Part shown: in pieces, positions 7,865 through 21,000 of the stretch | Layout of the letters: the number at the start of each line of letters is the position of its first letter | Numbering within the stretch: position 1 is the first letter of the stretch | Source of the DNA: a virus | Lineage: Duplodnaviria; Caudoviricetes | Direction: 5' to 3' (one strand) | IMG/VR virus record: IMGVR_UViG_2863389319_000001 | Length of the DNA stretch: 64,000 bases | The notes under the pieces: model-generated | What the model saw: the letters and a program-made list of their open reading frames with translations, nothing else | Databases searched by the model: none | What the model was told of the DNA's origin: nothing | Made by a program: the position numbers and the translations under genes

Positions 7865-8079
7865 CGGGCGGCCTCGCTGTCCCCGTCGATCCAGGCGCCG
7901 AGCTGCTCGGTGAGGACAAGCTCGACCAGGTGGCGGGTCAGCCGGGCCGGGTCGAAGCCGACCATCAGGATGTTCTCGTCGAGCCAGACGGAGCGCAGCG
8001 GGTCACCATCGGTCGGGAGGGTCACGGCGACGATGCTGGCGCGCGGCAGAATCGGGACGGGGGCGAGGATGGCGTTCAC
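7861..8079 (-). CDS. hypothetical protein
   Basis: Coupled overlap. Confidence 0.6.
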   Translation of the reverse strand: MNAILAPVPILPRASIVAVTLPTDGDPLRSVWLDENILMVGFDPARLTRHLVELVLTEQLGAWIDGDSEAAR

Positions 8080-8327
8080 GCGGTCACCACCCAGTCGGGG
8101 GTTACGTCGCGGAGGTTGCCGAACAGGTCGAGCATGATCTGCCAGGCGGTAGGGCGGTCCATCTGGGCCGGGGAGTAGGCGGCGACGATGCCCTCGGCGA
8201 CCTGCTGGAAGCAGATCGCGGGGAGGGCGTCATCGGCTAGAGCCGGCGCCAGCGCGGCGATTCGCGGCGGGGTGGGCTGTTCCGTGCATGCAACGCGTGC
8301 CATGATTGGGACGTCTCCGATCTGCAC
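8076..8327 (-). CDS. hypothetical protein
   Basis: First ORF after the cro-like gene; start may be 8303. Confidence 0.55.
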   Translation of the reverse strand: MQIGDVPIMARVACTEQPTPPRIAALAPALADDALPAICFQQVAEGIVAAYSPAQMDRPTAWQIMLDLFGNLRDVTPDWVVTA

Positions 8328-8411
8328 CCCGGGTTATCTAGGCCTTGGTGGGTGCGTCGTGTGATTCGAGGGGCTCGGCGTTGACGCGCTGGGCCTCTCT
8401 TCGTTTTGGGG

Positions 8412-8627
8412 TCAGGCTGCGTTCTGGAGCAGTTCGTTGACCGTGGTGCCGTAGGCGTTCGAGATCAGCAGCGCGACTTCCAGGGACGGGCTGCGGCGAC
8501 CACTGAACAGGTGCGACAGGGTTGCCTCGTGGATGCCAGTGCGGGCGGAGATCAGCCGGTTACTGGTGTCACCGCTGCGTCGAGCGTGCCGTTCGACGAC
8601 TTCTCGGCTGAGCCGAATGTTGGACAT
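8412..8627 (-). CDS. Cro-like XRE HTH regulator
   Basis: ISARTGIHEATLSHLFSGRRSPS helix-turn-helix; divergent from the repressor. Confidence 0.85.
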   Translation of the reverse strand: MSNIRLSREVVERHARRSGDTSNRLISARTGIHEATLSHLFSGRRSPSLEVALLISNAYGTTVNELLQNAA

Positions 8628-8698
8628 GGGGGTCCTTTGGTGGCGAGGTGGTGGTGAGCTAGCCGGATTTTCCTCGGCAGGTCAAAGCTACGCCTTAA

Positions 8699-8799
8699 CG
8701 ACCGCGCAAGCAAGTAATAGCGCCGATCGACCCACCCCGAGCATGCGCAAGATGGTTCGGTTTTCGTCTAACCTGGCCAGTAACTTGCTCGCGCGGTCG
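8699..8799. promoter_or_regulatory. paired inverted operator sites of the lysis/lysogeny switch
   Basis: CGACCGCGCAAGCAAGTAA (8699-8717) matches the reverse complement of 8781-8799 at 17/19 positions. Confidence 0.65.
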
Positions 8800-8818
8800 A
8801 TAACGACGGAGGACAGCC

Positions 8819-9232
8819 ATGGCCGACATGAAGGCGTTCGCAGACTGGCTCCACGAGCAGATGATCGCCGCCGGCTACGACCTGAGCAGCCAGCGCTCCG
8901 GCGGCAAGAGCAAGCTCGCCAACGATGCAGGCGTCGCTCTCTCCCAGGTCCAGCGTGCCCTCGGCGGGACAACACGTCCCGACATCGTCACCCTGCGGGC
9001 CATCGCCCATGCCCTTGATATCCCGATGAAGGTCATGCTCGTGCGGTCCGGCACTGTGGACGCAGGGGACCTGGACGAGCAGGTGCTGCCAGCTTCGGAT
9101 CTCGACGTGCGCACCCTGGGGCTCCAGCGCGGCGTTCCGGCCGACAAGCTCGATCACTGGGTCGCGATCGTCGACGCGGTCACCGGAACGTTCGCCGCCG
9201 AGCGGCAGCATCACGGTTCTGCAACTCCCTGA
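8819..9232 (+). CDS. immunity repressor (XRE HTH)
   Basis: KSKLANDAGVALSQVQRALGGTTRPDIVTLRAIAHAL; GGAGG RBS. Confidence 0.85.
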   Translation: MADMKAFADWLHEQMIAAGYDLSSQRSGGKSKLANDAGVALSQVQRALGGTTRPDIVTLRAIAHALDIPMKVMLVRSGTVDAGDLDEQVLPASDLDVRTLGLQRGVPADKLDHWVAIVDAVTGTFAAERQHHGSATP

Positions 9233-9290
9233 CACACTAGGCGGATCGCTGCGACGCTGCTCCTGTCGATCACCGAGCGCAGGAGCAGCG

Positions 9291-9878
9291 ATGGCCCTCT
9301 TCAAGAAGTCCCAGCCCTCTGACTCTTCCGGTCCGGCGCCGCTCGCCGAGTACAAGGTCGTCTACAAGGGGGGCCTGGCGGACCTGCCGAAGGCGAAGGT
9401 CGCGGGGATCGAGTTCCGGGTCTGGGGCGATCGGTTCACGCTCGACCCGACCGCGGCGGCCAAAAGGTTCTGGACGCCGCTCGCGATCCCCTTCTCCGCC
9501 ATCTCCGACCTGAAGATCGTCACCCGGCAAGTCGGCACAGGGCAGGCGATCCTCGCCGGCGCCAACGCCCGGAACTTGGCGCAGGACAACAACATCCACT
9601 TCCACTTCCAGGACGCTGCCGGCCAACAAGTCATCCTGCGCGTCGAGATGCTCACCGGCGTCACCGTCCAGGGCCAGGCCAAGAAGGCCGCCGAGTTCAA
9701 CGACCTGCTGCAGGCCCACGGCATTCGGCGGCTCTTCGGTGGCGCGCCCCAGGCAGCAGCCACGGCGCCGACCGGCGGCTCGCTGGCCGATGAGATCGCC
9801 AAGCTGCAGCAGCTCCTGCAGGCTGGCGCCCTGAGCCAGACCGAGTTCGAGCAGGCGAAGGCCCGGCTCCTCGGGTAG
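9291..9878 (+). CDS. SHOCT-domain protein
   Basis: C-terminal SLADEIAKLQQLLQAGALSQTEFEQAKARLL. Confidence 0.8.
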   Translation: MALFKKSQPSDSSGPAPLAEYKVVYKGGLADLPKAKVAGIEFRVWGDRFTLDPTAAAKRFWTPLAIPFSAISDLKIVTRQVGTGQAILAGANARNLAQDNNIHFHFQDAAGQQVILRVEMLTGVTVQGQAKKAAEFNDLLQAHGIRRLFGGAPQAAATAPTGGSLADEIAKLQQLLQAGALSQTEFEQAKARLLG

Positions 9879-9902
9879 TCCGACCTGTGCGCGGTGCAGG
9901 TC

Positions 9903-9932
9903 GGGCCACCCCCGAAATTTCGGGGGTGGCCC
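9903..9932. terminator. perfect 30-bp palindrome, probable terminator
   Basis: GGGCCACCCCCGAAA/TTTCGGGGGTGGCCC after the SHOCT gene. Confidence 0.65.
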
Positions 9933-10021
9933 CGTCAGCCCCGCGCTTCGATATCGTGGCGATATGCCGGGCCGGCGGCCCGCGCGATCACCCTGTCCCT
10001 CAGCGCAGACCGGAGGCCCCG

Positions 10022-10288
10022 ATGACCGACGAGCCGTGGACACTCGAGCGGATCTCCGACGCCTTGGGCAGCCCCGGCGTCCGCAAGGTATTCCTCGCGC
10101 AGATCAACAAGGCGCCGGTCTACGAGCTGTCGAACGTCGCCGCGAAGTGGCAGGGCATCGCCGAGCGGACCCTGGCCACGGGTGAGCGGATCCGCGCCGA
10201 TCACGCCGAGGTGGAAGCCGGTCGGCCGCTGCCCGGCGAGTGGATCGAGGGCTCGCACCGCATCGCCCAGCATCGCGGTGCCGCCTGA
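10022..10288 (+). CDS. putative antitoxin
   Basis: 88 aa (MTDEPWTLERI...), GGAGG RBS, directly upstream of a RelE-like ORF. Confidence 0.55.
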   Translation: MTDEPWTLERISDALGSPGVRKVFLAQINKAPVYELSNVAAKWQGIAERTLATGERIRADHAEVEAGRPLPGEWIEGSHRIAQHRGAA

Positions 10289-10289
10289 G

Positions 10290-10538
10290 ATGACCTACGC
10301 CCTGCGCTACGACAAGACGATCGAAATGATCTGGGACAGCCTCCCGGAGCCTGCCTCGCAAGCCCTCGGTGATGCCCTGGCGCAGGCCTGCGCCGATCCG
10401 CTCGGCCGGACCGAGCCGTACGGCGAGGACGACGGCGTCATGCGGACCCTGGTGGTCTCCGAGCTTCTGTTCGCCGTCGTGTACCTCGGCCACGTCACCC
10501 GCACCCTGCACCTGTACCAGATCGACTACGTGGGCTGA
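10290..10538 (+). CDS. putative RelE/ParE-like toxin
   Basis: 82 aa MTYALRYDKTIEMIWDSLP...CADP...; size and secondary-structure pattern resemble RelE. Confidence 0.55.
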   Translation: MTYALRYDKTIEMIWDSLPEPASQALGDALAQACADPLGRTEPYGEDDGVMRTLVVSELLFAVVYLGHVTRTLHLYQIDYVG

Positions 10539-10605
10539 CGGGTCCCCAGGGAACTGCTGCGCCCCGCGGCCCGAATTGGGCGGCGGGGCGTCGTCGTACC
10601 CGGGT

Positions 10606-11022
10606 TCAGCGGATCATCTGCAGGTAGGCCTTCGCGCTGGAGTGCAGGTCGAATGCCGCACCGAACCCGACCGCGGGCGACACGGAGCGGGCCGAGTACA
10701 CGTCGACGGCCGAGAACTCCCCGCGGTCGACCTTGATCAGCGCAGCTACCAGGGCCTGCTCGACGGTGGCGGGGTCGCTCGTCACGGCTGGCACCTCCCG
10801 CTCCGGGATCTTCTCGCCGAGGATCGGGTCCCGCTCCGGCTGCTTGTAGTCGTCGCCAGGGGCAACGGAGACGGCCTGCCACCTGGTGGTCTTGCCAGCA
10901 GCCTCCACGGCGATTCCGTACGGGTGGCGGGTGTAGCCGGTGGCGGCGAGGGCCGCCGCCTTGAGGCCGGGGATAGTCGCCGCGGCGTCGAGGAGCAGCT
11001 GCTGGAAACGGTGAGGGCGCAT
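10606..11022 (-). CDS. hypothetical protein
   Basis: 138-aa ORF with AAGGA RBS. Confidence 0.7.
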   Translation of the reverse strand: MRPHRFQQLLLDAAATIPGLKAAALAATGYTRHPYGIAVEAAGKTTRWQAVSVAPGDDYKQPERDPILGEKIPEREVPAVTSDPATVEQALVAALIKVDRGEFSAVDVYSARSVSPAVGFGAAFDLHSSAKAYLQMIR

Positions 11023-11097
11023 GGGGGTCCTTCGGGGATTCGGGGTCGTTCGATTATGTACGCCGCGAACGTCATGAACGGACCGCCCCGCCGGGCG

Positions 11098-11361
11098 TCA
11101 GAGCGCCCGGAGCGCCCTCTCGCAGTCCCTGCAGCGCTGCTCCTCCATGCCCGGCGGATACCAGGGCTCGCCAGGCCGGACGGGCCGGTAGTGGGCGTGC
11201 TCCATCGGCCCGGTGTCCAGGCCGCACAACGTGACCCCGAGCGGATCCTCGGGCACGTCCGGATCAGCGCCGGCCGCGTGCACCACGAGCACAACCGGCT
11301 CGACACCGTCGGATCCGAGGGCCCCCTCCTGCTCCAGCTCGAACAGCACGACGATCGCCAT
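11098..11361 (-). CDS. hypothetical protein with LCG...CxxC motif
   Basis: 87-aa ORF. Confidence 0.6.
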   Translation of the reverse strand: MAIVVLFELEQEGALGSDGVEPVVLVVHAAGADPDVPEDPLGVTLCGLDTGPMEHAHYRPVRPGEPWYPPGMEEQRCRDCERALRAL

Positions 11362-11496
11362 GCCCCCAGCCTTATTCCCATTCGAGGGTCGCGCATCTTC
11401 CGGGCTCAGCGCCCCGCCGTGCTTTCATGCGCTCTGGTGCCGGGTCCCTCCATTGCGGTTGGCTGGACGCATCAACCCTCCGACAAGGGAGCCTCG

Positions 11497-11643
11497 ATGG
11501 TCCTCGAACCCCTCGGCATGGCCGGCGGTGACGGGAACGGCGGGAATGGCGACATGCTTCCCGGCCAGCCGTGGCCCGTACCAGCCCCGGAACCCCAGCC
11601 CGACGGCGGGCCGCCGCCTGGTGACGGGGGCCACCGTAAGTGA
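11497..11643 (+). CDS. putative RiPP precursor peptide (imiditide/pamtide-like)
   Basis: 48 aa MVLEPLGMAGGDGNGGNGDMLPGQPWPVPAPEPQPDGGPPPGDGGHRK; AAGGGAG RBS; GTGA overlap with the methyltransferase. Confidence 0.7.
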   Translation: MVLEPLGMAGGDGNGGNGDMLPGQPWPVPAPEPQPDGGPPPGDGGHRK

Positions 11644-12776
11644 CCGCCACCAATCAGGACCGTCCCGCTGCGCCGGGGCGGTCCTTCCCTGTCTCCGACC
11701 CCTGGGTCGCGGCGTTCGAGGCCGTCCCTCGCGCCCAGTTCCTGCCCGACCTGATGTGGGCACACGACATGGCCCGAGGCGCCAGCGTCCCTGTCGACCG
11801 CACGGCGGACCCGGGCGCCTGGAACGCTGCCGCGCAGGCCGACATCCCGATCGTCACCCAGTGGGACGACGGGCGGCACCGTGGCAGCCCGCCAGGCACA
11901 GTGCCGACCAGCTCGGCGAGCATGCCATCCGTCGTCGCGGCCATGCTGGACGACCTCGACGTGAGCCCAGGTATGCGCGTTCTGGAGATCGGCGCCGGTA
12001 CCGGCTGGAACGCCGGGCTGCTCACGCACCGGCTCGGCGGCTCACAGGTCGTCAGCATGGAGGTGGATCCCGCCGTTGCCGAGACCGCCCGCCAGAACCT
12101 GGCTGCCAGCGGCCTCCATCCGACTGTGATCACTGGCGATGGCTATGCAGGCCACCCAGCCGGGGCCCCCTACGACCGGATCATCGCCACATGCGGCATG
12201 CGGCAGATTCCGCAGGCCTGGGTCGAGCAGCTCCGCCCCGGCGGCATCATCGTGGCCCCCTGGGGGACCCACTTCGAGAATGGCGACGCGCTCGTCCGAC
12301 TGGCCATCTCCCAGGACGGCATCGCGGCTGGCCCTTTTCTGCGGCCGGTGGAGTTCATGAAGCTGCGCGCACAGCGTCTCCGCCCACCCCAGCATCCGGC
12401 CGAGTTCCCCGGCGACGCCGACACCAGCACCACGACCCTGCGGCTGCCGTTCGGCCCGTGGGAGGCGTTCCCGTTCGCCGCCGGCCTGCGCCTGGATGGC
12501 GTGACCCACGTTGCTGGTCGCCGTGGCGACGAGCAGGCGGTGTGGCTGTACGGGCTCGCCGACCAGTCTTGGGCGGCCACGGTCTTCCGGGATGGTGTCG
12601 ACCACGCCACGGTGTGGCAGTCGGGGCCTCGACGGCTCTGGGATGAGATCGAGGCCGCGTATCAGTGGTGGACGGCCGTGGGCCAGCCGGGCTTTGAGCG
12701 GTTCGGACTGACCGTCGATCAGGATGGCGAGCGGGCATGGCTCGACCATCCCGCCAACCTCGTAAGGGCAAGGTGA
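11640..12776 (+). CDS. protein-L-isoaspartate O-methyltransferase homologue (RiPP-type, with C-terminal extension)
   Basis: VPRAQFLP, PTSSASMP, VLEIGAGTGWNA, GDGYAG..APYDRIIAT; C-terminal QSGPRRLWD...FGLTV. Confidence 0.9.
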   Translation: MTATNQDRPAAPGRSFPVSDPWVAAFEAVPRAQFLPDLMWAHDMARGASVPVDRTADPGAWNAAAQADIPIVTQWDDGRHRGSPPGTVPTSSASMPSVVAAMLDDLDVSPGMRVLEIGAGTGWNAGLLTHRLGGSQVVSMEVDPAVAETARQNLAASGLHPTVITGDGYAGHPAGAPYDRIIATCGMRQIPQAWVEQLRPGGIIVAPWGTHFENGDALVRLAISQDGIAAGPFLRPVEFMKLRAQRLRPPQHPAEFPGDADTSTTTLRLPFGPWEAFPFAAGLRLDGVTHVAGRRGDEQAVWLYGLADQSWAATVFRDGVDHATVWQSGPRRLWDEIEAAYQWWTAVGQPGFERFGLTVDQDGERAWLDHPANLVRAR

Positions 12777-12965
12777 CCCGTGCAGGGATGGGTGAACCCG
12801 AAGTACCGCGAGGCGGTCACCTCCGTCCGGCAACTGCCGCGCACGCCATGGCGTGACGGCAGGCTCCGGCCCCGCGGCGCCGTCATGGCCGTCGGCAATG
12901 CGATCTACGTGGTCCGGCCAGCCGAGGGCAAGCCAACTACGGAGTAGAGCCAGCCCGAGCATGAC

Positions 12966-13000
12966 GAAGGCGCCCACCGCGACTTGCGGTGGGCGCCTTC
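12966..13000. terminator. bidirectional intrinsic terminator
   Basis: GAAGGCGCCCACCGC-gactt-GCGGTGGGCGCCTTC between convergent genes. Confidence 0.8.
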
Positions 13001-13014
13001 ATCGCTGCCCCCGA

Positions 13015-13794
13015 TCAGCCGGTGCGCGGCCAAGCGGCGGAAGAGTCGCGCTGAACCTGGTACGCCAGCGCGAATCGCTCGCCTGACATGCGGGTTTCGT
13101 TCACCTCAATGGCGATGGTCTCGTCACCGCGCCGGATATGACTGGTACGGGTAACGACGAGGACCGGGATCGCCTTCGAGATCTTCAGGGCCGCCTGCTC
13201 CTCCTCCGTGGGCGAGCGAGTCCAAGCCGCTTCGTCCCAGCTGATCGGCGCCTTGAAGTATTCTTCGGCCCGGTCATAGATCCCGCCCGGGCCGGGCTTC
13301 TCGGCCCCCAGCGCGGGGATCTCTCCGACCAGGGCCACCGGGATGTAGCTGCTAGCGAGTTGGAGGACCTGCTTCGGCGTGGGCGGCCCCATCCGGCGAT
13401 CTCGGACGAGGACGTCCTGTCCGCGCGGCACGCCGAGGATGTCGGCGACGTGGTCGGGCGGGACAGCAAGTCCGCGGGTCGGCGCCTCGATGGCCACCCA
13501 GTCTTTTGCGTTCTGATCGAAGAAGTAGCCGATCTCGTCGCGGTAGACCGTGCGGTCCCGGACGACGATGCGGCTACGCGGACGCTCGCGCACGTAGGCC
13601 CCCTGTCGGCCACGGATCTCCACGTAGCCGTCAGCCGCCAGCGCGCGGACGGACTTCATGGCAGTACCCCTGTGGACACCGTACCGTTCGGCGATCTCCT
13701 CCCCTGAGGGCAACTTAGAGCCGGGGCCAAACTCGCCGGCCTCGATCGCCGCCCGCAATTCATCTGCGACACGGCGGGTCTGATCCCCGGTCAT
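13015..13794 (-). CDS. GntR/UTRA family transfer repressor (KorSA/TraR-like)
   Basis: GntR winged helix (GSKLPS..IAERYGV.R.T) plus UTRA domain; divergent from the transfer operon. Confidence 0.88.
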   Translation of the reverse strand: MTGDQTRRVADELRAAIEAGEFGPGSKLPSGEEIAERYGVHRGTAMKSVRALAADGYVEIRGRQGAYVRERPRSRIVVRDRTVYRDEIGYFFDQNAKDWVAIEAPTRGLAVPPDHVADILGVPRGQDVLVRDRRMGPPTPKQVLQLASSYIPVALVGEIPALGAEKPGPGGIYDRAEEYFKAPISWDEAAWTRSPTEEEQAALKISKAIPVLVVTRTSHIRRGDETIAIEVNETRMSGERFALAYQVQRDSSAAWPRTG

Positions 13795-13962
13795 CCGTCC
13801 TCCTCGCGGTTAGTCATGGCGCGTTTCTTTCTCTTAGGCTATCCCAGAGCACGTGGTGCATGCTACGGTCTAGCTGTACCAACCAGAACGGCCCCGACAG
13901 GTGATAGCGCACCGGTCGGGGCCCAGATCAGCCCACCCTGCGTCAACAGGAAGGCCGGTCCA

Positions 13963-14202
13963 ATGACCGATCGTAGTGCCGCTACAAGCCGTAGCACATC
14001 CCAGGGGGCCCTTGAAGACCCCAGCTTCACCCCTCCGGTCCCGTCGCCCGCCGATGCGCTTGACGCGGCCCAGGCCGAACTGAACGCCCTCGCCGCCGGC
14101 ATCAACGACCGCAGCCTCGACGGAGACCAGCGGTACGACCTCCTGCAGGACATCCAGTCGGCCGCAGGCCGTCTCGACGAGCTGAAGCGGGGCCCCCAGT
14201 GA
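13963..14202 (+). CDS. hypothetical protein, first gene of the transfer operon
   Basis: MTDRSAAT start after AGGAAGG. Confidence 0.6.
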   Translation: MTDRSAATSRSTSQGALEDPSFTPPVPSPADALDAAQAELNALAAGINDRSLDGDQRYDLLQDIQSAAGRLDELKRGPQ

Positions 14203-14466
14203 TGCTCGCCGCGCTCCTCATCCTGATCATCATCAGCACCGGCGCCATGTGGCTCTACCACTGCCACGGCCGCACCTTCGAGCGCAACCCGAAGGACTCG
14301 CAGTGAGCGTCGACACCGGCCACACGATGGGCCTGACCCGCGCCGAGATCGCTGCGGCCCTGCGCGGCACCCCCGCCGACGAACCCGCACCGACCACCAG
14401 CTGGTCGTGGGACAAGCCCGACACCCGCCCCGCAGCGTGGGCCGCTTCCGGAGAGGACAAGTAGCC

Positions 14467-14775
14467 GTGCCCATCACTTTCCACGAACTCATCGCCGCCC
14501 ACAGCGAGATGCTCGCCCGCATCGCCTGCGGATCGATCGCCACCGAACCCGTCGCGTTCGTTTGCCAGCTCGGTGAGCTTGTCGACGACTCCGACCTCCG
14601 CGACAACCCGAGTTTCGAGGGCACCGCCGAGAGTCTCCGGGCTGCCGTCACGCTCCTCGCTGAGGCCCTCGACCGGCCCGCCAGCAGCCAGGCGCAGATC
14701 GATTTCCTGCAGGCCGCGGACAAGCACCTGCACGACCTCGCCGCCGACGCGATCGCCCGAAGGAGCAGCAAGTGA
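14467..14775 (+). CDS. hypothetical helical protein (paralogue of 15548-15835)
   Basis: ELIAAHSEMLA...QL...LAEAL...ADKHL. Confidence 0.65.
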   Translation: MPITFHELIAAHSEMLARIACGSIATEPVAFVCQLGELVDDSDLRDNPSFEGTAESLRAAVTLLAEALDRPASSQAQIDFLQAADKHLHDLAADAIARRSSK

Positions 14776-15008
14776 CCACCGAGACCTGGCCCGAGGGCGT
14801 GATCGCCCGCTACATGACCATGGTGGGCCTCGCCCTCGCCGACCCCAACATCACCGTTGACCTCATCAACGACGGCGGCGAAGCCATCTGCCGCGGCTGC
14901 GGCAAGGACTGGCCCAATCCCAACTACCCGTTCACCGTGCGGCAGTGGGCCGAGTCCCACGCCGAGACCTGCCGAGCCCTGCCCGATCCGAACGGGGCCC
15001 AGCGGTGA
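14772..15008 (+). CDS. small Zn-binding protein (CxxC...HxxxC)
   Basis: CRGCG...WAESHAETCRALP. Confidence 0.7.
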   Translation: MTTETWPEGVIARYMTMVGLALADPNITVDLINDGGEAICRGCGKDWPNPNYPFTVRQWAESHAETCRALPDPNGAQR

Positions 15009-15129
15009 GCGACCACATCAACGGTGGCTACGGGCAGCCGCTTCAAGCCCCGGCTGGCGGCAACCCACCCCAGTGCCAGACCAGTCAGCCCACCCCGCCC
15101 CCGCAGATCGAGGCCCCGAAGGAGCAGAA

Positions 15130-15399
15130 GTGACCACCTACGAGTACGCGATCACGATCGACATCCCCGGCCCGCACAAGCCCAACCCGCGCATCCCCGA
15201 GCAGACCCAGAACCTGAACGCCACCCGAACCCAGTACGCGTCCGGCGAGGTTGACCTCGCCGACAGCTTCGACCCGGCTTCCAGCGCGGACGTGGCCGTT
15301 GTCGCCAAGGGCCTCGTCAGCGACGTCTCCGGCCCGAAGTACGCCGGCAAGACCGTCACGGTCCGCGAGCTCACGCTCACCCCGAAGGAACGGCAGTGA
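15130..15399 (+). CDS. hypothetical protein
   Basis: GTG start VTTYEYAITI after AAGGAG. Confidence 0.6.
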   Translation: MTTYEYAITIDIPGPHKPNPRIPEQTQNLNATRTQYASGEVDLADSFDPASSADVAVVAKGLVSDVSGPKYAGKTVTVRELTLTPKERQ

Positions 15400-15547
15400 A
15401 CGTCAACGTCACCTGGCACCCGGCCGACGATCCGGGCGGCCGCCCCGCCACTGAGCAGGAGATCACCGATTTCCTCGCCAGCATGACCGCTCTCGACGGC
15501 ACCAACTACGTCGACATCTACCAGCAGACCATCGAGGAGGGCTGGGA

Positions 15548-15835
15548 ATGACCGCGAAGATCACCACGACGGCGGAGCTGATCGCCAATCACGCCGACAT
15601 GCTCGCCGACCTCTTCGGGGAACCGGCCAGCGCCAATCCCACCGAGCTCATCAGCCAGCTCGAAACGGTCGCCTCCGTGTACGAGGCGACCTCGATGACC
15701 ACCGACGCGGCCGACGCCCTCAGCAAGGCCGCCAACTACCTGGCGGAAGCCCTTGAAGACCCCCGCCGTGAGGCGCAGTTGATTCGCCGAGCCGACAAGC
15801 AGCTGTGCGTCATCGACGCGATGGCGCTGGCCTGA
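15548..15835 (+). CDS. hypothetical helical protein (paralogue of 14467-14775)
   Basis: ELIANHADMLA...QL...LAEAL...ADKQL. Confidence 0.7.
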   Translation: MTAKITTTAELIANHADMLADLFGEPASANPTELISQLETVASVYEATSMTTDAADALSKAANYLAEALEDPRREAQLIRRADKQLCVIDAMALA

Positions 15836-15847
15836 AAGGAAACCCTG

Positions 15848-15997
15848 ATGCGCGAGCACGTCACCCTCGACGACGACACGCCGTTCACCGAGACCGATTT
15901 CGAGCAGGTTCGGGAGCTCAGCGTCGCTGTGCACCACGCCGACCAGGACATCCCGAGGCTGGCCGACGAGGCCATCTACCGGCTTACCGGCCTGTAG
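15848..15997 (+). CDS. small acidic hypothetical protein
   Basis: MREHVTLDDD..., AAAGGA RBS. Confidence 0.5.
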   Translation: MREHVTLDDDTPFTETDFEQVRELSVAVHHADQDIPRLADEAIYRLTGL

Positions 15998-16159
15998 GTG
16001 AGTGCCTGCCACGAGCATGCCGAGGACGACCGCTCAGTCGCCACCGCCCTCGGCAGGCCCGCGCCTGCACACCACGACGACCCGCAAGTCCTGACCAACG
16101 CGACCGACTTGATCCGAATCCTCGGCTACCAGCCCGAAGCCGCTTGAAAGGCCACCACC

Positions 16160-16339
16160 ATGACCGCCGAGCACATCACCCCTGTCACCTACGAGATCAC
16201 CACCCCCGGCCGCACGATCACCGGCAACGCCACCGTCTTCGGCTCGATCGAGCACCGCGAGACCGTCGCCGCCCTCACCCAGCACCACCACCTCGACCTC
16301 GCCGAGATCACCGTCCAGCTCAGCACCATCGCGGCGTGA
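16160..16339 (+). CDS. small hypothetical protein
   Basis: MTAEHITPVTYEIT..., GAAAGG RBS. Confidence 0.55.
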   Translation: MTAEHITPVTYEITTPGRTITGNATVFGSIEHRETVAALTQHHHLDLAEITVQLSTIAA

Positions 16340-16513
16340 CGGTCGCCCCCGACGGCGCCGGCTACCACAACCTCGCCGGCGCCCCCGTCACCACTCAGCT
16401 CTACCTCGTCGGCCAGTACACCTGCGGCGGCTGCGGCCTCACCGAGACAGTTACCACTGAGCAACTGGGCGGCGCTCAACCACGCCAAGACCTGCGAAGG
16501 GGAACCCCAATGA
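16336..16513 (+). pseudogene. frameshifted CxxC...HxxxC Zn-binding gene
   Basis: CGGCG in one frame and NHAKTCEGEPQ* in the +1 frame, whose stop overlaps the next ATG. Confidence 0.5.
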
Positions 16514-16704
16514 TCAACCGTGAGAAGTACCCGCTGCTGGGCGCCGCGGCCGATGCCCTGGACGCCGGCGACTCCAAGCGTGCTGACGCCCTGGTCCGTG
16601 CCGCCGAGATCGCGGGCACCCCCGCTGAGAAGGCTGCACTGGCGACCACCGACAGGCTCATCGCAGCCGCTGACCAGCTCATCGCGGGCACGGCCGACCA
16701 GTAA
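16510..16704 (+). CDS. hypothetical Ala-rich protein
   Basis: MINREKYP... Confidence 0.55.
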   Translation: MINREKYPLLGAAADALDAGDSKRADALVRAAEIAGTPAEKAALATTDRLIAAADQLIAGTADQ

Positions 16705-16733
16705 TCACCATCATCAGAAACCAAGGAGCCGAA

Positions 16734-17153
16734 ATGACCGAGGCCTTCGAAACCGTCCGCCGCACAGCAGACGCAGTGGTCGTCACAGCCGATGGCCGCA
16801 ATCTGCTGCTGATCGAGCGCGACTGGCCGCCCTTCGAGGGGGCCTGGGCCCTCCCCGGCGGCCACGTAGACAGGGGGGAAACGAGCCGCGCCGCAGCCGC
16901 CCGCGAGCTGCTCGAGGAAACCGGAATCCTCCTGGCCACCAACGAGCTGGCCCAGATCGGCGTCTGGGACCAGCCTGGCCGGGACCCGCGCGGCAGGTAC
17001 GTCACCGTCGCCTACCTCGCCGTCGTCCCGGCTGGCACCCCGATCATCGCCGGGGACGACGCCCGCGCCGCCCGCTGGTGGCCGATCAACTCCCTGCCGC
17101 CGCTCGCATTCGACCACGCGGACATCATCGCCGCCGCCCTCACCCGCCGCTAA
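16734..17153 (+). CDS. Nudix hydrolase (pSAM2 Pif/MutT-like context)
   Basis: WALPGGHVDRGETSRAAAARELLEETG, RDPR, LAFDH. Confidence 0.92.
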   Translation: MTEAFETVRRTADAVVVTADGRNLLLIERDWPPFEGAWALPGGHVDRGETSRAAAARELLEETGILLATNELAQIGVWDQPGRDPRGRYVTVAYLAVVPAGTPIIAGDDARAARWWPINSLPPLAFDHADIIAAALTRR

Positions 17154-17198
17154 CCAGCCAACCGCTCCACTAGGGGCCCCGATCGCCACGAGGACACC

Positions 17199-18188
17199 GT
17201 GAAGTACCGCGCCGAAGATCGAACCCGCCTGATCCCGCACACCATCGACGGCATCACCGAGATGGTCCCGGAGGACTACACCGTCCACGTGCCCGTCCCA
17301 CCCCATGACTGGGACCGCATCATCCTCACCGCCGCCACTGCGGCCACCGCGGCCATCCTCACGGCGTCCGTCGTCTGGTCCACCAGTAGCGTCGGCGCGC
17401 TTCTCGGCCGGTCTGTCGAATCCGCCATCGCCTACGGCGCGGCTAGCGTCTTCGACCTCGTCTGGATCGTCTGTATGGCCGTCGAATGGCTGAACCGCTA
17501 TAACCCCCGCGGCGCCGTCCTCCCCCGCCGCGCCGGCCACATTGCACTCGTGATCGCTATGGCCGCGGTGTGCACCAACGGCTGGCTCACTGGGGGCGTC
17601 GCCCCCGGCATCATCGGCGCGGCCGTCTCCGCCCTCGCTAAGGGCACCTGGACCATCGTCATGAAGCACACCGCCAAGCCGCTGGACCCGCTCACACAGG
17701 GCTGGGTGGACCGGCAGATGTCCGAAGCAGGCGGCCGCCTCGCCCTCGGCTCCGTCCGCCGCCAGGTCGCGCGGGCCGACGGACAGTACGCCGCCCAGAT
17801 CGCCGCCCTCACCCCGGACGGGCCGGACACGGACAACGGACAGCCGGACACCGTGTCCGGGACAGTCCGGGCAGCTGTCCGCGCCGCCCTCACCACCATG
17901 CCCGGCGCCGCCCCCGACGAGATCGTCCGACAGCTGGCCCACGCCGGGATCCACACCGATGAGGACACCGTCCGACGCCTGTCCGGACAGCAGGACAGCA
18001 CGTCAGGGAAGGTGCTGCGTCTCACCGCCACCGCCGGGCCGAGCATCGCGGACACCATCCGGACACAGGTATCCGCAGGCGTGTCCGACCCGGTCGCTGT
18101 CCTCGCCCAAGTCCGGACTGTCCACGGATCCGATGTCCGCGCGGACACCGTCCTGCGGACACTGCGCCGGATCTCCCGCACCGCCTGA
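17199..18188 (+). CDS. SpdB-like multi-pass membrane plasmid-spread protein
   Basis: About four TM segments (FDLVWIVCMAVEWL) then a soluble C-terminal tail; in the transfer operon. Confidence 0.75.
   Translation: MKYRAEDRTRLIPHTIDGITEMVPEDYTVHVPVPPHDWDRIILTAATAATAAILTASVVWSTSSVGALLGRSVESAIAYGAASVFDLVWIVCMAVEWLNRYNPRGAVLPRRAGHIALVIAMAAVCTNGWLTGGVAPGIIGAAVSALAKGTWTIVMKHTAKPLDPLTQGWVDRQMSEAGGRLALGSVRRQVARADGQYAAQIAALTPDGPDTDNGQPDTVSGTVRAAVRAALTTMPGAAPDEIVRQLAHAGIHTDEDTVRRLSGQQDSTSGKVLRLTATAGPSIADTIRTQVSAGVSDPVAVLAQVRTVHGSDVRADTVLRTLRRISRTA
17781..18162. repeat. dense GGACA/TGTCC repeat field inside the spdB-like 3' end
   Basis: About 20 copies in about 380 bp on both strands, often paired as palindromes. 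Confidence 0.75.
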
Positions 18189-18225
18189 ACGACCCGAACC
18201 GCCACACGCTGACGAAGGAAAGATC

Positions 18226-18795
18226 ATGACCGGCAACGACTCGATCTACAATGACGCGGCGTTCGATATCACGAGCGTCCCGTCATGGAAGTCCCCGCCA
18301 CTGCACGGCGCCTATGCCCCGAACGCGAAGCTCTCCTCGCGGGCGAAGGCCGGGATCGCCGCAGGCGGGGTCATCCTCGCCGCCACCGGCATGATCGCCT
18401 ACTCGGACTACGCGTCGTCCCAAGCTGACGCCCATGTGAAGGCCGCTCAGATCGCCCTGCAGCAGTCCCAGCTGGACCTGCAGCGCCAGCAGCAGGAGGC
18501 CGCGCAGGCCGCTACCGCCGGCCAGGAGACCCAGGCCGAGCAGGCCCGGCGTCAGGCCGTCCAGGACTGCGTTGCGAAGGCCTCCGGGGACAGCATGAAC
18601 GCGGTCTCCCAGTGCTCCGCCGCCTTCCCGGCGATCACCTCGCCCGGCATGTCGACGGCCTCCGACACGGTCGCCAGCAGTAAGTCCTCGGCGGCCGGAT
18701 CCGACGTCGGGCTCGTCGTTCTCGGCTCCGTCGGGGCGGTCATGGCGGTGGGCTGGGCGAAGAAGCGGTTCGGCCACCGGGCTCCTTCTCTGTAA
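18226..18795 (+). CDS. membrane protein with coiled coil (Spd-like)
   Basis: N- and C-terminal TM segments around a Gln-rich coil. Confidence 0.7.
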   Translation: MTGNDSIYNDAAFDITSVPSWKSPPLHGAYAPNAKLSSRAKAGIAAGGVILAATGMIAYSDYASSQADAHVKAAQIALQQSQLDLQRQQQEAAQAATAGQETQAEQARRQAVQDCVAKASGDSMNAVSQCSAAFPAITSPGMSTASDTVASSKSSAAGSDVGLVVLGSVGAVMAVGWAKKRFGHRAPSL

Positions 18796-18936
18796 CACGA
18801 TGTGACCTCCCCCCACCCGCCTCCCGCTCGCAAATGAGCCCCCAATGCCACCCCTTGGCTGTTCAAATGCCGTCTCGGGGGATTCTCCGGCCGGGTGGGG
18901 GGTGGGTGGGTGACTACCAGCAGTGAGGTATTCGAG

Positions 18937-21000
18937 ATGACTACGACCATCGAACCACCCCCGCAAACCGACTCCGGAGGCGACCGCAGGCCCGCCGAGC
19001 CGAGCAGCCCGGAGGCCCGAACGGGCACCCTCGCGGGCATTCTCACCCCCGTCCAGCCGGCGCGACCGACCGCCCACCTGGGCACCACCGCCGCCCTCGC
19101 GCAGGACTTACCTGCCGCCGAAGCGGCGACCCCGGGCGGGGTCGCCGGCCGCGGGAAGACCGGCTCGGGCGATCGGCGGGACGGCCCGATCGGCGCCCTC
19201 GTACGGGCCTTGGCCGGCCGCCTGGGCCGCACCGGCACCGCCACCTCGGTCAAGCAGAGTCACGACATCAAAGAGACTCGGCTCTCCGGGAACTCGACCT
19301 CCGCCACCCACGCGAACAAGTCCGACCGCACCGCCAAGCATGAGAGTGGCTCGCAGCACCGGTCCAACCGTGACGCCAAGATCGCCGACCTCAACAACAA
19401 GGTCCACCAGCACCACAACAGGAACCAGCAGGACCACAAGCGGGCCAGCACATCTGACGCCAAGACCTCCCATGCGAGGCAGGCCAAGGACGACAACTCG
19501 TCCAGGCACAACCGGGACAGCAAGGACAACCGGGACGCCAAAGCGTCCGACGCGAAGAGCTCCAAGAACGACAACGCGTCGAAATCCGCGCAGGACGACA
19601 AGAACCACCGCGACGCCCGCACCGACGGGAAGACAGCAAAGACCAACAGCACCGACACCAAGTCCTCGGACACGAAGACCACGAGCGCGAAGAAAGACGA
19701 CGCGGCAAGGAACGACAACTCCCAGCGCAGCAACCAGGACGACCGGAAGACCGGCAGCACGGACACGAAGAACACCCGAACCGACGTACCGGCGTACAGC
19801 GCCCGGGACGCCGGCCCGTTCGACTCCGCCCCCACCAAGCGACCCAAGGGCGGCGGACCGGACGAACGCGGCTCAGCCAAAAATCCAGCCCGCAAGATCG
19901 ACCTGGGCAAGACCAGTGACGCCCCGTCCGACCCAGCGAAGGAAGCCGGTCCGGACCGACCGGCGAAGAAGGACACCGAACCGGCCGACCGCGACAAGCA
20001 GGACCAGGCGTCACAGGGCCCGCGCCCCCGCACCCAAACCTCCCGAGAGGTCGGCTACCGCGACGGAACACGGGCCGCCGCAGCCGTCGGGCACGTCCGG
20101 GCGTGGCGGGACGGCACCCGCGACGGCTGGGACGACCGCACCACCGCCGATCTGGCCGAGAGGAAGAAGATGGACGCCACCAAGACCCGCAACGAGGACC
20201 GCCGCCTGCTGAAGCCCGACAAGGCCCCCATCGCGCCGAAGACGGCCCCAGCCGCCGGATCAACCGCCGACATGACGAAGACGACCGAGCCCCCGAAGCA
20301 GCCCACGCTCACCATCCCACCGAAGCCGACGACCCCGCCCAGGCCAACGGTCCCGCCGAAGCCAACCGTCCCGCCCACCATTCCGGCCGGGACAGGCGCA
20401 CAGAAGAAGACCGCCCCGGCACCCGGGGCAGTAACGACGAAGACCACAGCAGCAACACCCCATTCAGGACAGACCACCGGGCCGACGCCGCCCGGCCCCA
20501 AGTCGCCCACAGCACCCGAGCCGACAGCAGTGACAGCAGTGAAAGTCGGCCCCGATGCCGTGGAGTTCACCGCACCGGACCGGCACGGCGTCGCGGCGCA
20601 GCACACCCTCAGCCGTGGCGAGGTCCGCAGCCTCAGGCAATTCGAACAACGCCTGGAACAGAAGGGGCAGACGCTGGCGAAAATCGGCGAGGACAACAAA
20701 ACCGCCCAGCAGCACGCGCTCGCCCACGCGATGCGCGCCCAGCAACTGGCCGAAGCAGCCAAGGAGATGCAGGGCGGGATGGCGCTGGTCGGCGTGCTAC
20801 TCCGGCTGGCCGAGTGGGCCACCGCGCTGCGCTATAAGACCGATGAGGTCGCCAAGCGCACCACGCGCAGCGCCGAGGCCGTACGCGTGGTTGCCGCCAA
20901 CGCCCAGACCCGACACGGGGTCATCTACAAGGCCGTCGCCGACTCCCCACTCACCACCCCAGCCGAGCGGGCCTTCTACCAGGACAAGCAGGGCAGCTGA
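18937..21000 (+). CDS. large low-complexity transfer-associated protein with helical C-terminal domain
   Basis: D/K/S/T/N-rich and Pro-rich tracts; C-terminus resembles the next ORF. Confidence 0.75.
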   Translation: MTTTIEPPPQTDSGGDRRPAEPSSPEARTGTLAGILTPVQPARPTAHLGTTAALAQDLPAAEAATPGGVAGRGKTGSGDRRDGPIGALVRALAGRLGRTGTATSVKQSHDIKETRLSGNSTSATHANKSDRTAKHESGSQHRSNRDAKIADLNNKVHQHHNRNQQDHKRASTSDAKTSHARQAKDDNSSRHNRDSKDNRDAKASDAKSSKNDNASKSAQDDKNHRDARTDGKTAKTNSTDTKSSDTKTTSAKKDDAARNDNSQRSNQDDRKTGSTDTKNTRTDVPAYSARDAGPFDSAPTKRPKGGGPDERGSAKNPARKIDLGKTSDAPSDPAKEAGPDRPAKKDTEPADRDKQDQASQGPRPRTQTSREVGYRDGTRAAAAVGHVRAWRDGTRDGWDDRTTADLAERKKMDATKTRNEDRRLLKPDKAPIAPKTAPAAGSTADMTKTTEPPKQPTLTIPPKPTTPPRPTVPPKPTVPPTIPAGTGAQKKTAPAPGAVTTKTTAATPHSGQTTGPTPPGPKSPTAPEPTAVTAVKVGPDAVEFTAPDRHGVAAQHTLSRGEVRSLRQFEQRLEQKGQTLAKIGEDNKTAQQHALAHAMRAQQLAEAAKEMQGGMALVGVLLRLAEWATALRYKTDEVAKRTTRSAEAVRVVAANAQTRHGVIYKAVADSPLTTPAERAFYQDKQGS

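Follow-up and report, generated by a model that had tools for sequence, protein, structure and literature searches.

A probable two-gene imiditide cluster in an integrated Kitasatospora prophage

The stretch of DNA analysed here (the window; 64,000 nucleotides of the IMG/VR virus record IMGVR_UViG_2863389319_000001, Duplodnaviria; Caudoviricetes) corresponds to C1:1470665-1534664 of a 9.57-Mb Kitasatospora genome. It contains a 48-codon gene that overlaps the start of a gene for a methyltransferase related to protein isoaspartyl methyltransferase (PIMT). We consider it highly probable that this pair is a two-gene cluster of the imiditide / type I pamtide class of RiPPs (peptides made by ribosomes and modified after translation), and that it is an accessory unit of an integrated 96-kb Kitasatospora prophage. 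The elements of the pair are as follows, in window numbering.

11484..11490, plus strand: Shine-Dalgarno site AAGGGAG, 6 nt 5' of the ATG codon, read from the sequence
11497..11643, plus strand: predicted precursor peptide gene, 48 aa, ATG start, TGA at 11641-11643 (sequence reading, homologues and codon comparison)
11640..12776, plus strand: PIMT-type peptide aspartate O-methyltransferase (PAMT) gene, 378 aa, GTG start (Pfam, NCBIfam, phrog_13505 and an AlphaFold2 model)

The 48-aa product, MVLEPLGMAGGDGNGGNGDMLPGQPWPVPAPEPQPDGGPPPGDGGHRK, contains 27% Gly, 23% Pro and 8% Asp (four Asp residues) and has a net charge of -4. The N-terminus is acidic and Gly-rich, the conserved core extends from L21 to K48, and the C-terminus (GDGGHRK) ends in HRK. 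Asp-Gly sites are found at D12, D36 and D43, and Asn-Gly sites at N14 and N17. An earlier reading made from the letters of the DNA (hereafter, the sequence-only reading) had described an uncalled Gly/Pro-rich open reading frame (ORF) with three Asp-Gly and two Asn-Gly sites and this end, with a ribosome-binding site of its own and with translational coupling to a PIMT through the sequence GTGA. Our reading agrees on each of these points: the AAGGGAG site is properly placed before ATG 11497, and the TGA codon at 11641-11643 overlaps the GTG codon at 11640, the two genes sharing 4 nt, an overlap also found in relatives (see below). The exact peptide was absent from 15 billion public proteins, among which the enzyme and three neighbouring ORFs were present; thus, the description of the peptide gene as uncalled is correct.

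Because the DNA is GC-rich (68%) and the precursor frame is open for 424 codons, the open frame alone is weak proof of a gene. GC content by codon position, including the third position, does not single out this frame, and scans of the peptide in its frame against Pfam and NCBIfam found no family. Since openness and codon GC are uninformative, comparative evidence was used. One genome per species was scanned for relatives of the enzyme; 322 were found, and the best 80, all from Kitasatospora or Streptomyces, were examined together with IMG/VR loci, giving a set of 85 related loci. A homologous small ORF lies directly upstream of the enzyme gene in 77 of the 85, and in 56 of those 77 the peptide stop and the enzyme start overlap by the identical 4 nt. 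In an alignment of 43 precursors, P22, G23, P25, P33, P35, D36 and G37 are invariant, and D19, P29 and P40 are conserved in at least 90%; the sequence P-D-[GS] is present in all 77 precursors. These have a median length of 47 aa, a composition of 23% Gly, 21% Pro and 10% Asp, and a net charge mostly from -1 to -6. A profile built from the precursors matched 85 clusters of called small proteins, almost all of 40-85 aa, among 1.84 billion representative proteins. Furthermore, comparison with the peptide gene of a related phage in the genome of another Kitasatospora species (G005, described below) showed 10 synonymous and 2 non-synonymous changes over the last 29 codons, with 27 of 29 residues identical, and on this codon comparison the precursor is under purifying selection. 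G005 has the sequence GAGGAG at the position matching the Shine-Dalgarno site of the window.

It might be argued that the 48-codon frame yields no functional peptide and is a mere leader, or upstream ORF, that brings ribosomes to the GTG codon. The openness of the frame, which follows from the high GC content, the codon-position GC, which does not favour it, and its absence from public annotation fit such an explanation. However, the amino acids are conserved despite synonymous change, the core residues are invariant across Kitasatospora and Streptomyces, homologues of 40-85 aa are called in 85 clusters, and the ribosome-binding site is properly spaced. We therefore regard a mere leader as very improbable and conclude, from these sequence comparisons, that the 48-aa peptide gene is real. 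It is a further case of a real small gene overlooked by annotation. In some of the related loci (L003:5650-5940, L004:5700-5985, L059 and L086), two tandem precursor genes stand before one methyltransferase gene; the second, shorter precursor starts directly at the PGxPW core and lies about 150-190 nt before the main one.

The PAMT consists of an N-terminal extension, a PIMT core at residues 92-240, over which the Pfam PCMT family matches with an E-value of 2.3e-31, and a C-terminal domain. TIGR04188, which models the RiPP-type PIMT found in graspetide systems, aligns with the protein from end to end (320 bits, up to position 362 of 363), and since the match covers the full length, the C-terminal extension is homologous to that of RiPP-type PIMTs, as had been claimed in the sequence-only reading. 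Two motifs are recognizable: a GxGxG motif, E-I-G118-A-G120-T-G122-W, in which G118 is invariant and G120, T121 and G122 are conserved in at least 90% of 43 relatives, and a C-terminal WxxxGxP motif, W344-T-A-V-G348-Q-P350, with P350 invariant and W344 kept in at least 90% of the same relatives. The substrate-binding S-x-S-x-P segment is present, and it is invariant. The protein also gave a full-length match (1.6e-113) to phrog_13505, which PHROGs lists simply as 'methyltransferase'. An AlphaFold2 model based on a 43-sequence alignment has two domains and a pLDDT (predicted local distance difference test score) of 90; among PDB structures it is best matched by the two-domain PIMT of Thermotoga maritima (1DL5), the nearest solved analogue of the RiPP-associated PIMTs according to a 2026 review (PMC13001092).

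The catalytic core thus has a bona fide PIMT fold, as would also be the case if the enzyme were a general repair isoaspartyl methyltransferase for protein upkeep and the upstream ORF were incidental. However, the protein scores under the cut-offs of all the canonical PIMT models (TIGR00080, 91.4 versus 159; NF001453, 108 versus 188; NF010549, 103 versus 282). The canonical repair enzyme Pcm is a single-domain protein of about 210 aa, whereas the PAMT of 378 aa carries two extra regions, of about 90 residues at the N-terminus and about 140 residues at the C-terminus, which are typical of RiPP-associated enzymes. Together with the conservation and coupling of the upstream ORF in 77 of the 85 relatives, this makes a repair function highly improbable.

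The imiditide class is defined by a PIMT homologue of 300-450 aa with a GxGxG motif and a special C-terminal domain, and by precursors of 30-75 aa, often unannotated, that are encoded on the same strand just upstream, with no other conserved gene (10.1101/2023.04.07.536058; PMC10787088). Cao et al. based their genome mining on a 41-aa imiditide-specific C-terminal motif (10.1101/2023.04.07.536058). Type I pamtide precursors have about 45 aa with 17% Gly, 17% Pro and 10% Asp, a conserved Asp near conserved Pro/Gly, and conserved charged termini (PMC10787088). We took as an imiditide precursor any same-strand ORF of 30-75 aa that contained one Asp or more and lay within 500 bp upstream of the enzyme gene. 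The precursor of the window has 48 aa, four Asp residues and a stop codon overlapping the enzyme start; the enzyme has 378 aa, a PIMT-like region and the GxGxG and WxxxGxP motifs; the Gly, Pro and Asp contents (27/23/8% in the window and 23/21/10% in the family) are of the kind described, and P35-D36-G37 is invariant. No gene for ATP-grasp, lasso cyclase, LanB/LanC or YcaO lies beside the pair; the ORFs within 3 kb encode a GntR regulator and small proteins, and for the latter no Pfam, NCBIfam or PHROG match was found. Since the pair agrees with the class in every feature that could be compared, we assign it to the imiditide / type I pamtide class. The motifs, the precursor type, the invariant Asp and the absence of another RiPP enzyme nearby are thus consistent with the two-gene cassette proposed in the sequence-only reading. 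The pair belongs to an already described peptide class, and only its carriage by a phage is unusual.

In the mechanism that we propose, the peptide and the methyltransferase would be translated from one mRNA by coupled translation, and the C-terminal domain and N-terminal extension of the PAMT would bind the peptide by its linear, Pro-rich core and its basic tail. The PIMT core would then move a methyl group from S-adenosylmethionine to the carboxylate in the side chain of a single Asp, for which Asp36 of the invariant sequence Pro-Asp-Gly is the most probable candidate. Attack of the Gly37 backbone nitrogen on the methyl ester would form an aspartimide, with a net change of -18 Da, which may either persist or hydrolyse to isoaspartate (isoAsp) or Asp. 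This chemistry is suggested by homology to NmaA/NmaM and SpaA/SpaM, in which NmaM and SpaM each methylate one Asp of a linear precursor and species of +14 and -18 Da are formed (10.1101/2023.04.07.536058; PMC10787088).

Asp36 is predicted as the modification site from its conservation, because it is the sole Asp retained in all 77 precursors, is kept both in truncated forms without Asp19 and in 'NPPK' forms without Asp43, and is flanked by an invariant Pro and an invariant Gly. Asp-Gly is, moreover, the sequence most prone to imide formation. All of the 'NPPK' precursors belong to one enzyme clade (support 98), and the C-terminal type of the precursor follows the enzyme tree; recognition of the peptide tail by the enzyme fits this correlation. 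Another explanation could be that the methyltransferase acts on a different phage or host protein and that the small peptide serves the enzyme as regulator, chaperone or inhibitor; some PAMTs probably do act on larger Pro/Gly-rich proteins, such as FHA-domain proteins (PMC10787088). However, the coupled peptide shows an invariant Asp-Gly and varies together with the enzyme clade, no other credible ORF in the 9.6-Mb genome contains the core pattern PGxP[WY]...PD[GS], and the adjacent peptide is the substrate in both characterised systems. A different substrate is therefore improbable, and we retain the small peptide as the substrate.

The genes and signals around the pair are as follows.

8819..9232, plus strand: phage-repressor-like helix-turn-helix (HTH) protein (phrog_3949 'transcriptional repressor', 2.3e-15; weak Pfam HTH_3 match)
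11098..11361, minus strand: 87-aa gene, divergent from the cassette (gene layout)
11362..11496, plus strand: intergenic region that must hold the cassette's own promoter (inferred from gene layout)
12780..12947, plus strand: 55-aa ORF, 4 nt after the enzyme gene, third-position GC 0.86, called in public annotation
12966..13000, no strand assigned: perfect GC-rich hairpin of 15 bp, separating the cassette from the convergent GntR gene (folding)
13015..13794, minus strand: GntR/UTRA (HutC-type) regulator, the convergent neighbour (Pfam GntR 1.5e-17, UTRA 1.5e-10; phrog_10724 7.6e-48)

The cassette appears to be a self-contained unit, because its upstream neighbours are divergent, a hairpin follows it, and the GntR gene is convergent. 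The region 12948-13014 folds at -41 kcal/mol (z = -6.6; none of 200 shuffled sequences was as stable), and the predicted hairpin is likely a bidirectional terminator; a consensus terminator scan missed it because it has no T-run. A scan against Rfam found no leader RNA or riboswitch. The HTH gene stands at a divergent switch beside the leftward replication operon. The sequence-only reading placed the pair next to regulators, and it lies indeed 2.3 kb from the repressor-like gene and 240 bp from the GntR/UTRA gene. The 55-aa ORF has two homologues at 78-80% identity in other assemblies (short Logan contigs) and no Pfam or PHROG match, and it is probably a real phage gene outside the conserved cassette; as a candidate third gene of the cassette it was rejected, as no homologue lies beside any of the 85 related cassettes. 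Homologues of the two divergent genes of unknown function (10606-11022 and 11098-11361, both on the minus strand) occur near cassettes in a few Kitasatospora loci, directly after the enzyme gene at 49% identity in L015, and also in L014, L029, L034 and L084. In the 87-aa protein, pairs of Cys are conserved, and a stretch RPGxxWxP resembles the precursor core, probably by chance. Its candidacy as a second substrate (RPGEPWYPPG) was rejected as unsupported, for its family conserves only RPGxxWxP, which no Asp-Gly follows.

The element that carries the pair is an integrated temperate phage of 96.4 kb. It is bracketed by perfect 126-bp direct repeats at C1:1439949-1440074 and C1:1536213-1536338 (-30715..-30590 and 65549..65674 in window numbering, both beyond the window), and a tyrosine integrase gene (C1:1440296-1440907) lies beside the left repeat. 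The element encodes a DnaB helicase, a large terminase, a portal-Nudix-MuF fusion, a tail spike and an FtsK-like protein, and over a stretch of some 100 kb the GC content falls from 0.715 in the genome to about 0.68. A distance of 42 kb separates the cassette from the left end. Thus, the attachment-site repeats, the integrase and the packaging and structural genes around the pair bear out its carriage by a phage. No tRNA gene was found at either end of the prophage, and the attachment site is therefore probably in or beside a protein-coding gene. A megablast search of positions 8000-20000 against the phage collection gave no match.

A related phage is present in G005; its terminase is 83% identical to that of the window phage but its DnaB only 38%. 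It retains the cassette beside a GntR regulator, with an enzyme 75% identical. The G005 phage with the cassette is seen three times in that genome, on C4 (a 93-kb contig), at C1:8478687-8496140 near the chromosome end, and at C2:849136-850260; the 93-kb contig could be a free phage-plasmid replicon, or the copies could be due to terminal repeats or to the assembly. Of 50,697 phage records searched, only those of the five Austintatiousvirus phages held a full-length PAMT homologue, and one Saccharomonospora phage gave a partial match. IMG/VR gave seven contigs; in four of the five close ones, between 16 nt and 3.6 kb separate the cassette from the predicted provirus end, and because of this position at the edge, where it may belong to the host flank, the support from these contigs is weaker than it appears.

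In the enzyme tree, the PAMT of the window forms a long branch that is sister (support 98) to a mostly Kitasatospora chromosomal clade. The Austintatiousvirus enzymes cluster with a chromosomal paralogue from the genome of the window, in a clade separate from the window PAMT; thus, phage-borne copies arose more than once. PAMT homologues were also found on 72 actinomycete plasmids (PLSDB) and in 129 of 150 other Kitasatospora genomes searched, often in multiple copies. One of the plasmids, pshk1 (NZ_CP102517.1), a 63-kb linear conjugative plasmid of Streptomyces, has an unannotated, Gly/Ser/Pro-rich precursor gene (L108:14737-14982) whose product ends in GGGKHR and which lies 3 nt before the PAMT gene. 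The genome of the window itself has five further PAMT loci (C1:646987-648081, C1:5650436-5651530, C1:3303387, C3:513071 and C2:276534), namely two more imiditide-type pairs and three PAMT genes preceded by ATP-grasp genes (graspetide type). Of the two imiditide-type precursors, one is Gly/Ser-rich like gp25 of phage Austintatious and the other is MPETEGGGHGGNPAPTPPMPWPPTPSPDSGPPPGNGGHRK. Most of the cassette's close relatives lie in chromosomes, usually with XRE/DUF397 regulators next to them, and plasmids carry others; the pair is common accessory cargo of the flexible genome rather than a phage speciality.

The genes around the relatives were clustered in 86 loci, many of which are orthologous, so the counts are not independent. 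An XRE regulator (HTH_31 + DUF5753) occurs within a few kb in 40 of the 86 loci, DUF397 proteins in 23 and DUF6879 in 24, and a HATPase_c_2 protein is encoded immediately upstream in 25. Both other imiditide-type loci of the window's genome have an XRE gene upstream, and an XRE/DUF397 pair adjoins the cassette in the Austintatious phages. The prophage copy of the window has no XRE, DUF397, HATPase_c_2 or DUF6879 neighbour. Together, the XRE, DUF397, HATPase_c_2 and DUF6879 genes are WhiJ-like regulator sets, observed about 0.3-3 kb upstream of cassettes (L008-L087) and also at L001:1849-2833.

Several observations weigh against the assignment to the class, or against parts of it. The precursor family is net acidic, whereas the review stresses the strong positive charge of imiditides (PMC13001092), and recognition based on charge may therefore differ. 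Asp19, conserved in at least 90%, or Asp43, present throughout the HRK-type subgroup, could be the site or a second site of modification. The cassette is presumably expressed from a promoter of its own in 11362..11496, but a scan of 10500-14500 for the sigma-70 consensus recognised no promoter. In addition, the cassette of the G005 phage points the same way as the replication genes, opposite to the orientation in the window. Expression during lysogeny is therefore not implied, and because of this difference the retention of the cassette in both phages does not allow the time of expression to be inferred.

For the pair, the sequence-only reading had suggested a role as a signal, exclusion or competition factor. 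Such a role is speculation, and no exporter or signal peptide was found to support it. A reading compatible with the proposed chemistry is that the cassette is not a neutral passenger but a module of phage-host conflict, acting as a covalent electrophilic inhibitor or in superinfection exclusion or anti-defence. It is retained in two diverged related phages, the Austintatiousvirus pairs sit between lysis and immunity genes, chromosomal relatives stand beside XRE/DUF397 regulator pairs that resemble toxin-antitoxin systems, and aspartimides have been proposed as possible electrophilic traps (PMC13001092). However, the phage-borne copies are polyphyletic and few (five isolated phages among the 50,697 records and seven IMG/VR contigs, four of them with the cassette at the contig edge), and most relatives are chromosomal or on plasmids. 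We thus consider a conflict module a doubtful, minority prospect; given where most close relatives lie, on chromosomes or plasmids, a role specific to phages is not implied. A more general form of this idea, which we hold to be slightly less likely again, is that the imiditide pairs of phages and plasmids are conflict or lysogenic-conversion modules, in which an intracellular, aspartimide-containing Pro-rich peptide would hit a protein of the host or of a rival element, for example as an electrophilic trap or as a slowly hydrolysing 'timer'. If this were true, it would be the first biological function for the aspartimide RiPP class, and the recurrent placement of the chromosomal relatives near XRE, DUF397 and HATPase genes would then mirror this same context of regulation or defence.

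Imiditides / type I pamtides have an established chemistry, and the main open challenge is to link these peptides to a biological function (PMC13001092). The founding papers make no mention of phages, integrases or mobile elements (10.1101/2023.04.07.536058; PMC10787088), and our literature searches linking aspartimide with prophages, or phage Alderaan with methyltransferase, found nothing relevant. That mobile elements carry such pairs about is shown by the locus of the window, the G005 phage, the Austintatiousvirus phages and the conjugative plasmids. Carriage of this kind offers a tractable genetic setting for the question of function, because Alderaan and Streptomyces venezuelae form a laboratory system. 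Furthermore, the sequence comparisons define a precursor subfamily (PGxPW...PDG) that is acidic and well conserved and that offers a clear candidate for the modified site.

Among phages, the closest parallels are in two virion-derived Streptomyces phage genomes, Austintatious (gp24/gp25, MK305888) and Alderaan (HQ601_00033/34, MT711975), in which the PAMT is 48-49% identical to that of the window and the enzyme gene is preceded, at a distance of 8 nt, by a Gly/Ser/Asp-rich ORF of 70 aa whose end is basic. The pair is placed in a non-structural region between the lysis and the repressor/Cro genes and is annotated only as 'O-methyltransferase' and 'hypothetical protein'. Its precursor family (GGSQQDDS...SDG) differs from that of the window. 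The methyltransferases of graspimiditides and lanthimiditides (TIGR04188 and TIGR04364) are homologous two-domain enzymes; however, the PAMT of the window scores below their curated cut-offs (320 versus 380 and 134 versus 320, respectively), and no lanthipeptide enzyme gene stands beside it, nor an ATP-grasp gene such as would be expected in a graspetide-type system.

Of the characterised systems, NmaA/NmaM of Nonomuraea maritima (10.1101/2023.04.07.536058; PMC13001092) is likewise a minimal two-gene cluster, with a precursor of Gly, Pro, Asp and basic residues encoded directly before a PIMT homologue. Likened by description, NmaM (373 aa) and the PAMT of the window (378 aa) both have the GxGxG and the C-terminal WxxxGxP motifs, and both systems have a linear substrate and no protease, cyclase or exporter. 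However, the modification in NmaA is at Asp28-His29, and NmaA has been called strongly cationic, whereas the window family is net acidic, has an Asp-Gly as its predicted site and has a Pro-rich PGxPW...PDG core, unlike NmaA; the NmaA/NmaM cluster is not described as being on a mobile element. The likeness to SpaA/SpaM of Streptomyces sparsogenes (PMC10787088) concerns the precursor, a Gly/Pro/Asp-rich peptide of about 45 aa in which a single highly conserved Asp stands near conserved Pro/Gly. The site in SpaA is Asp23, compared with the predicted Asp36 in the window, and its final product is probably isoAsp, formed via the methyl ester and the aspartimide (PMC10787088). Seven subgroups of pamtide precursors have been published (PMC10787088), beside which the PGxPW...PDG family is set here by description only. 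The termini of SpaA are charged and conserved, as in the window family, and its C-terminal residues are required for modification (PMC10787088).

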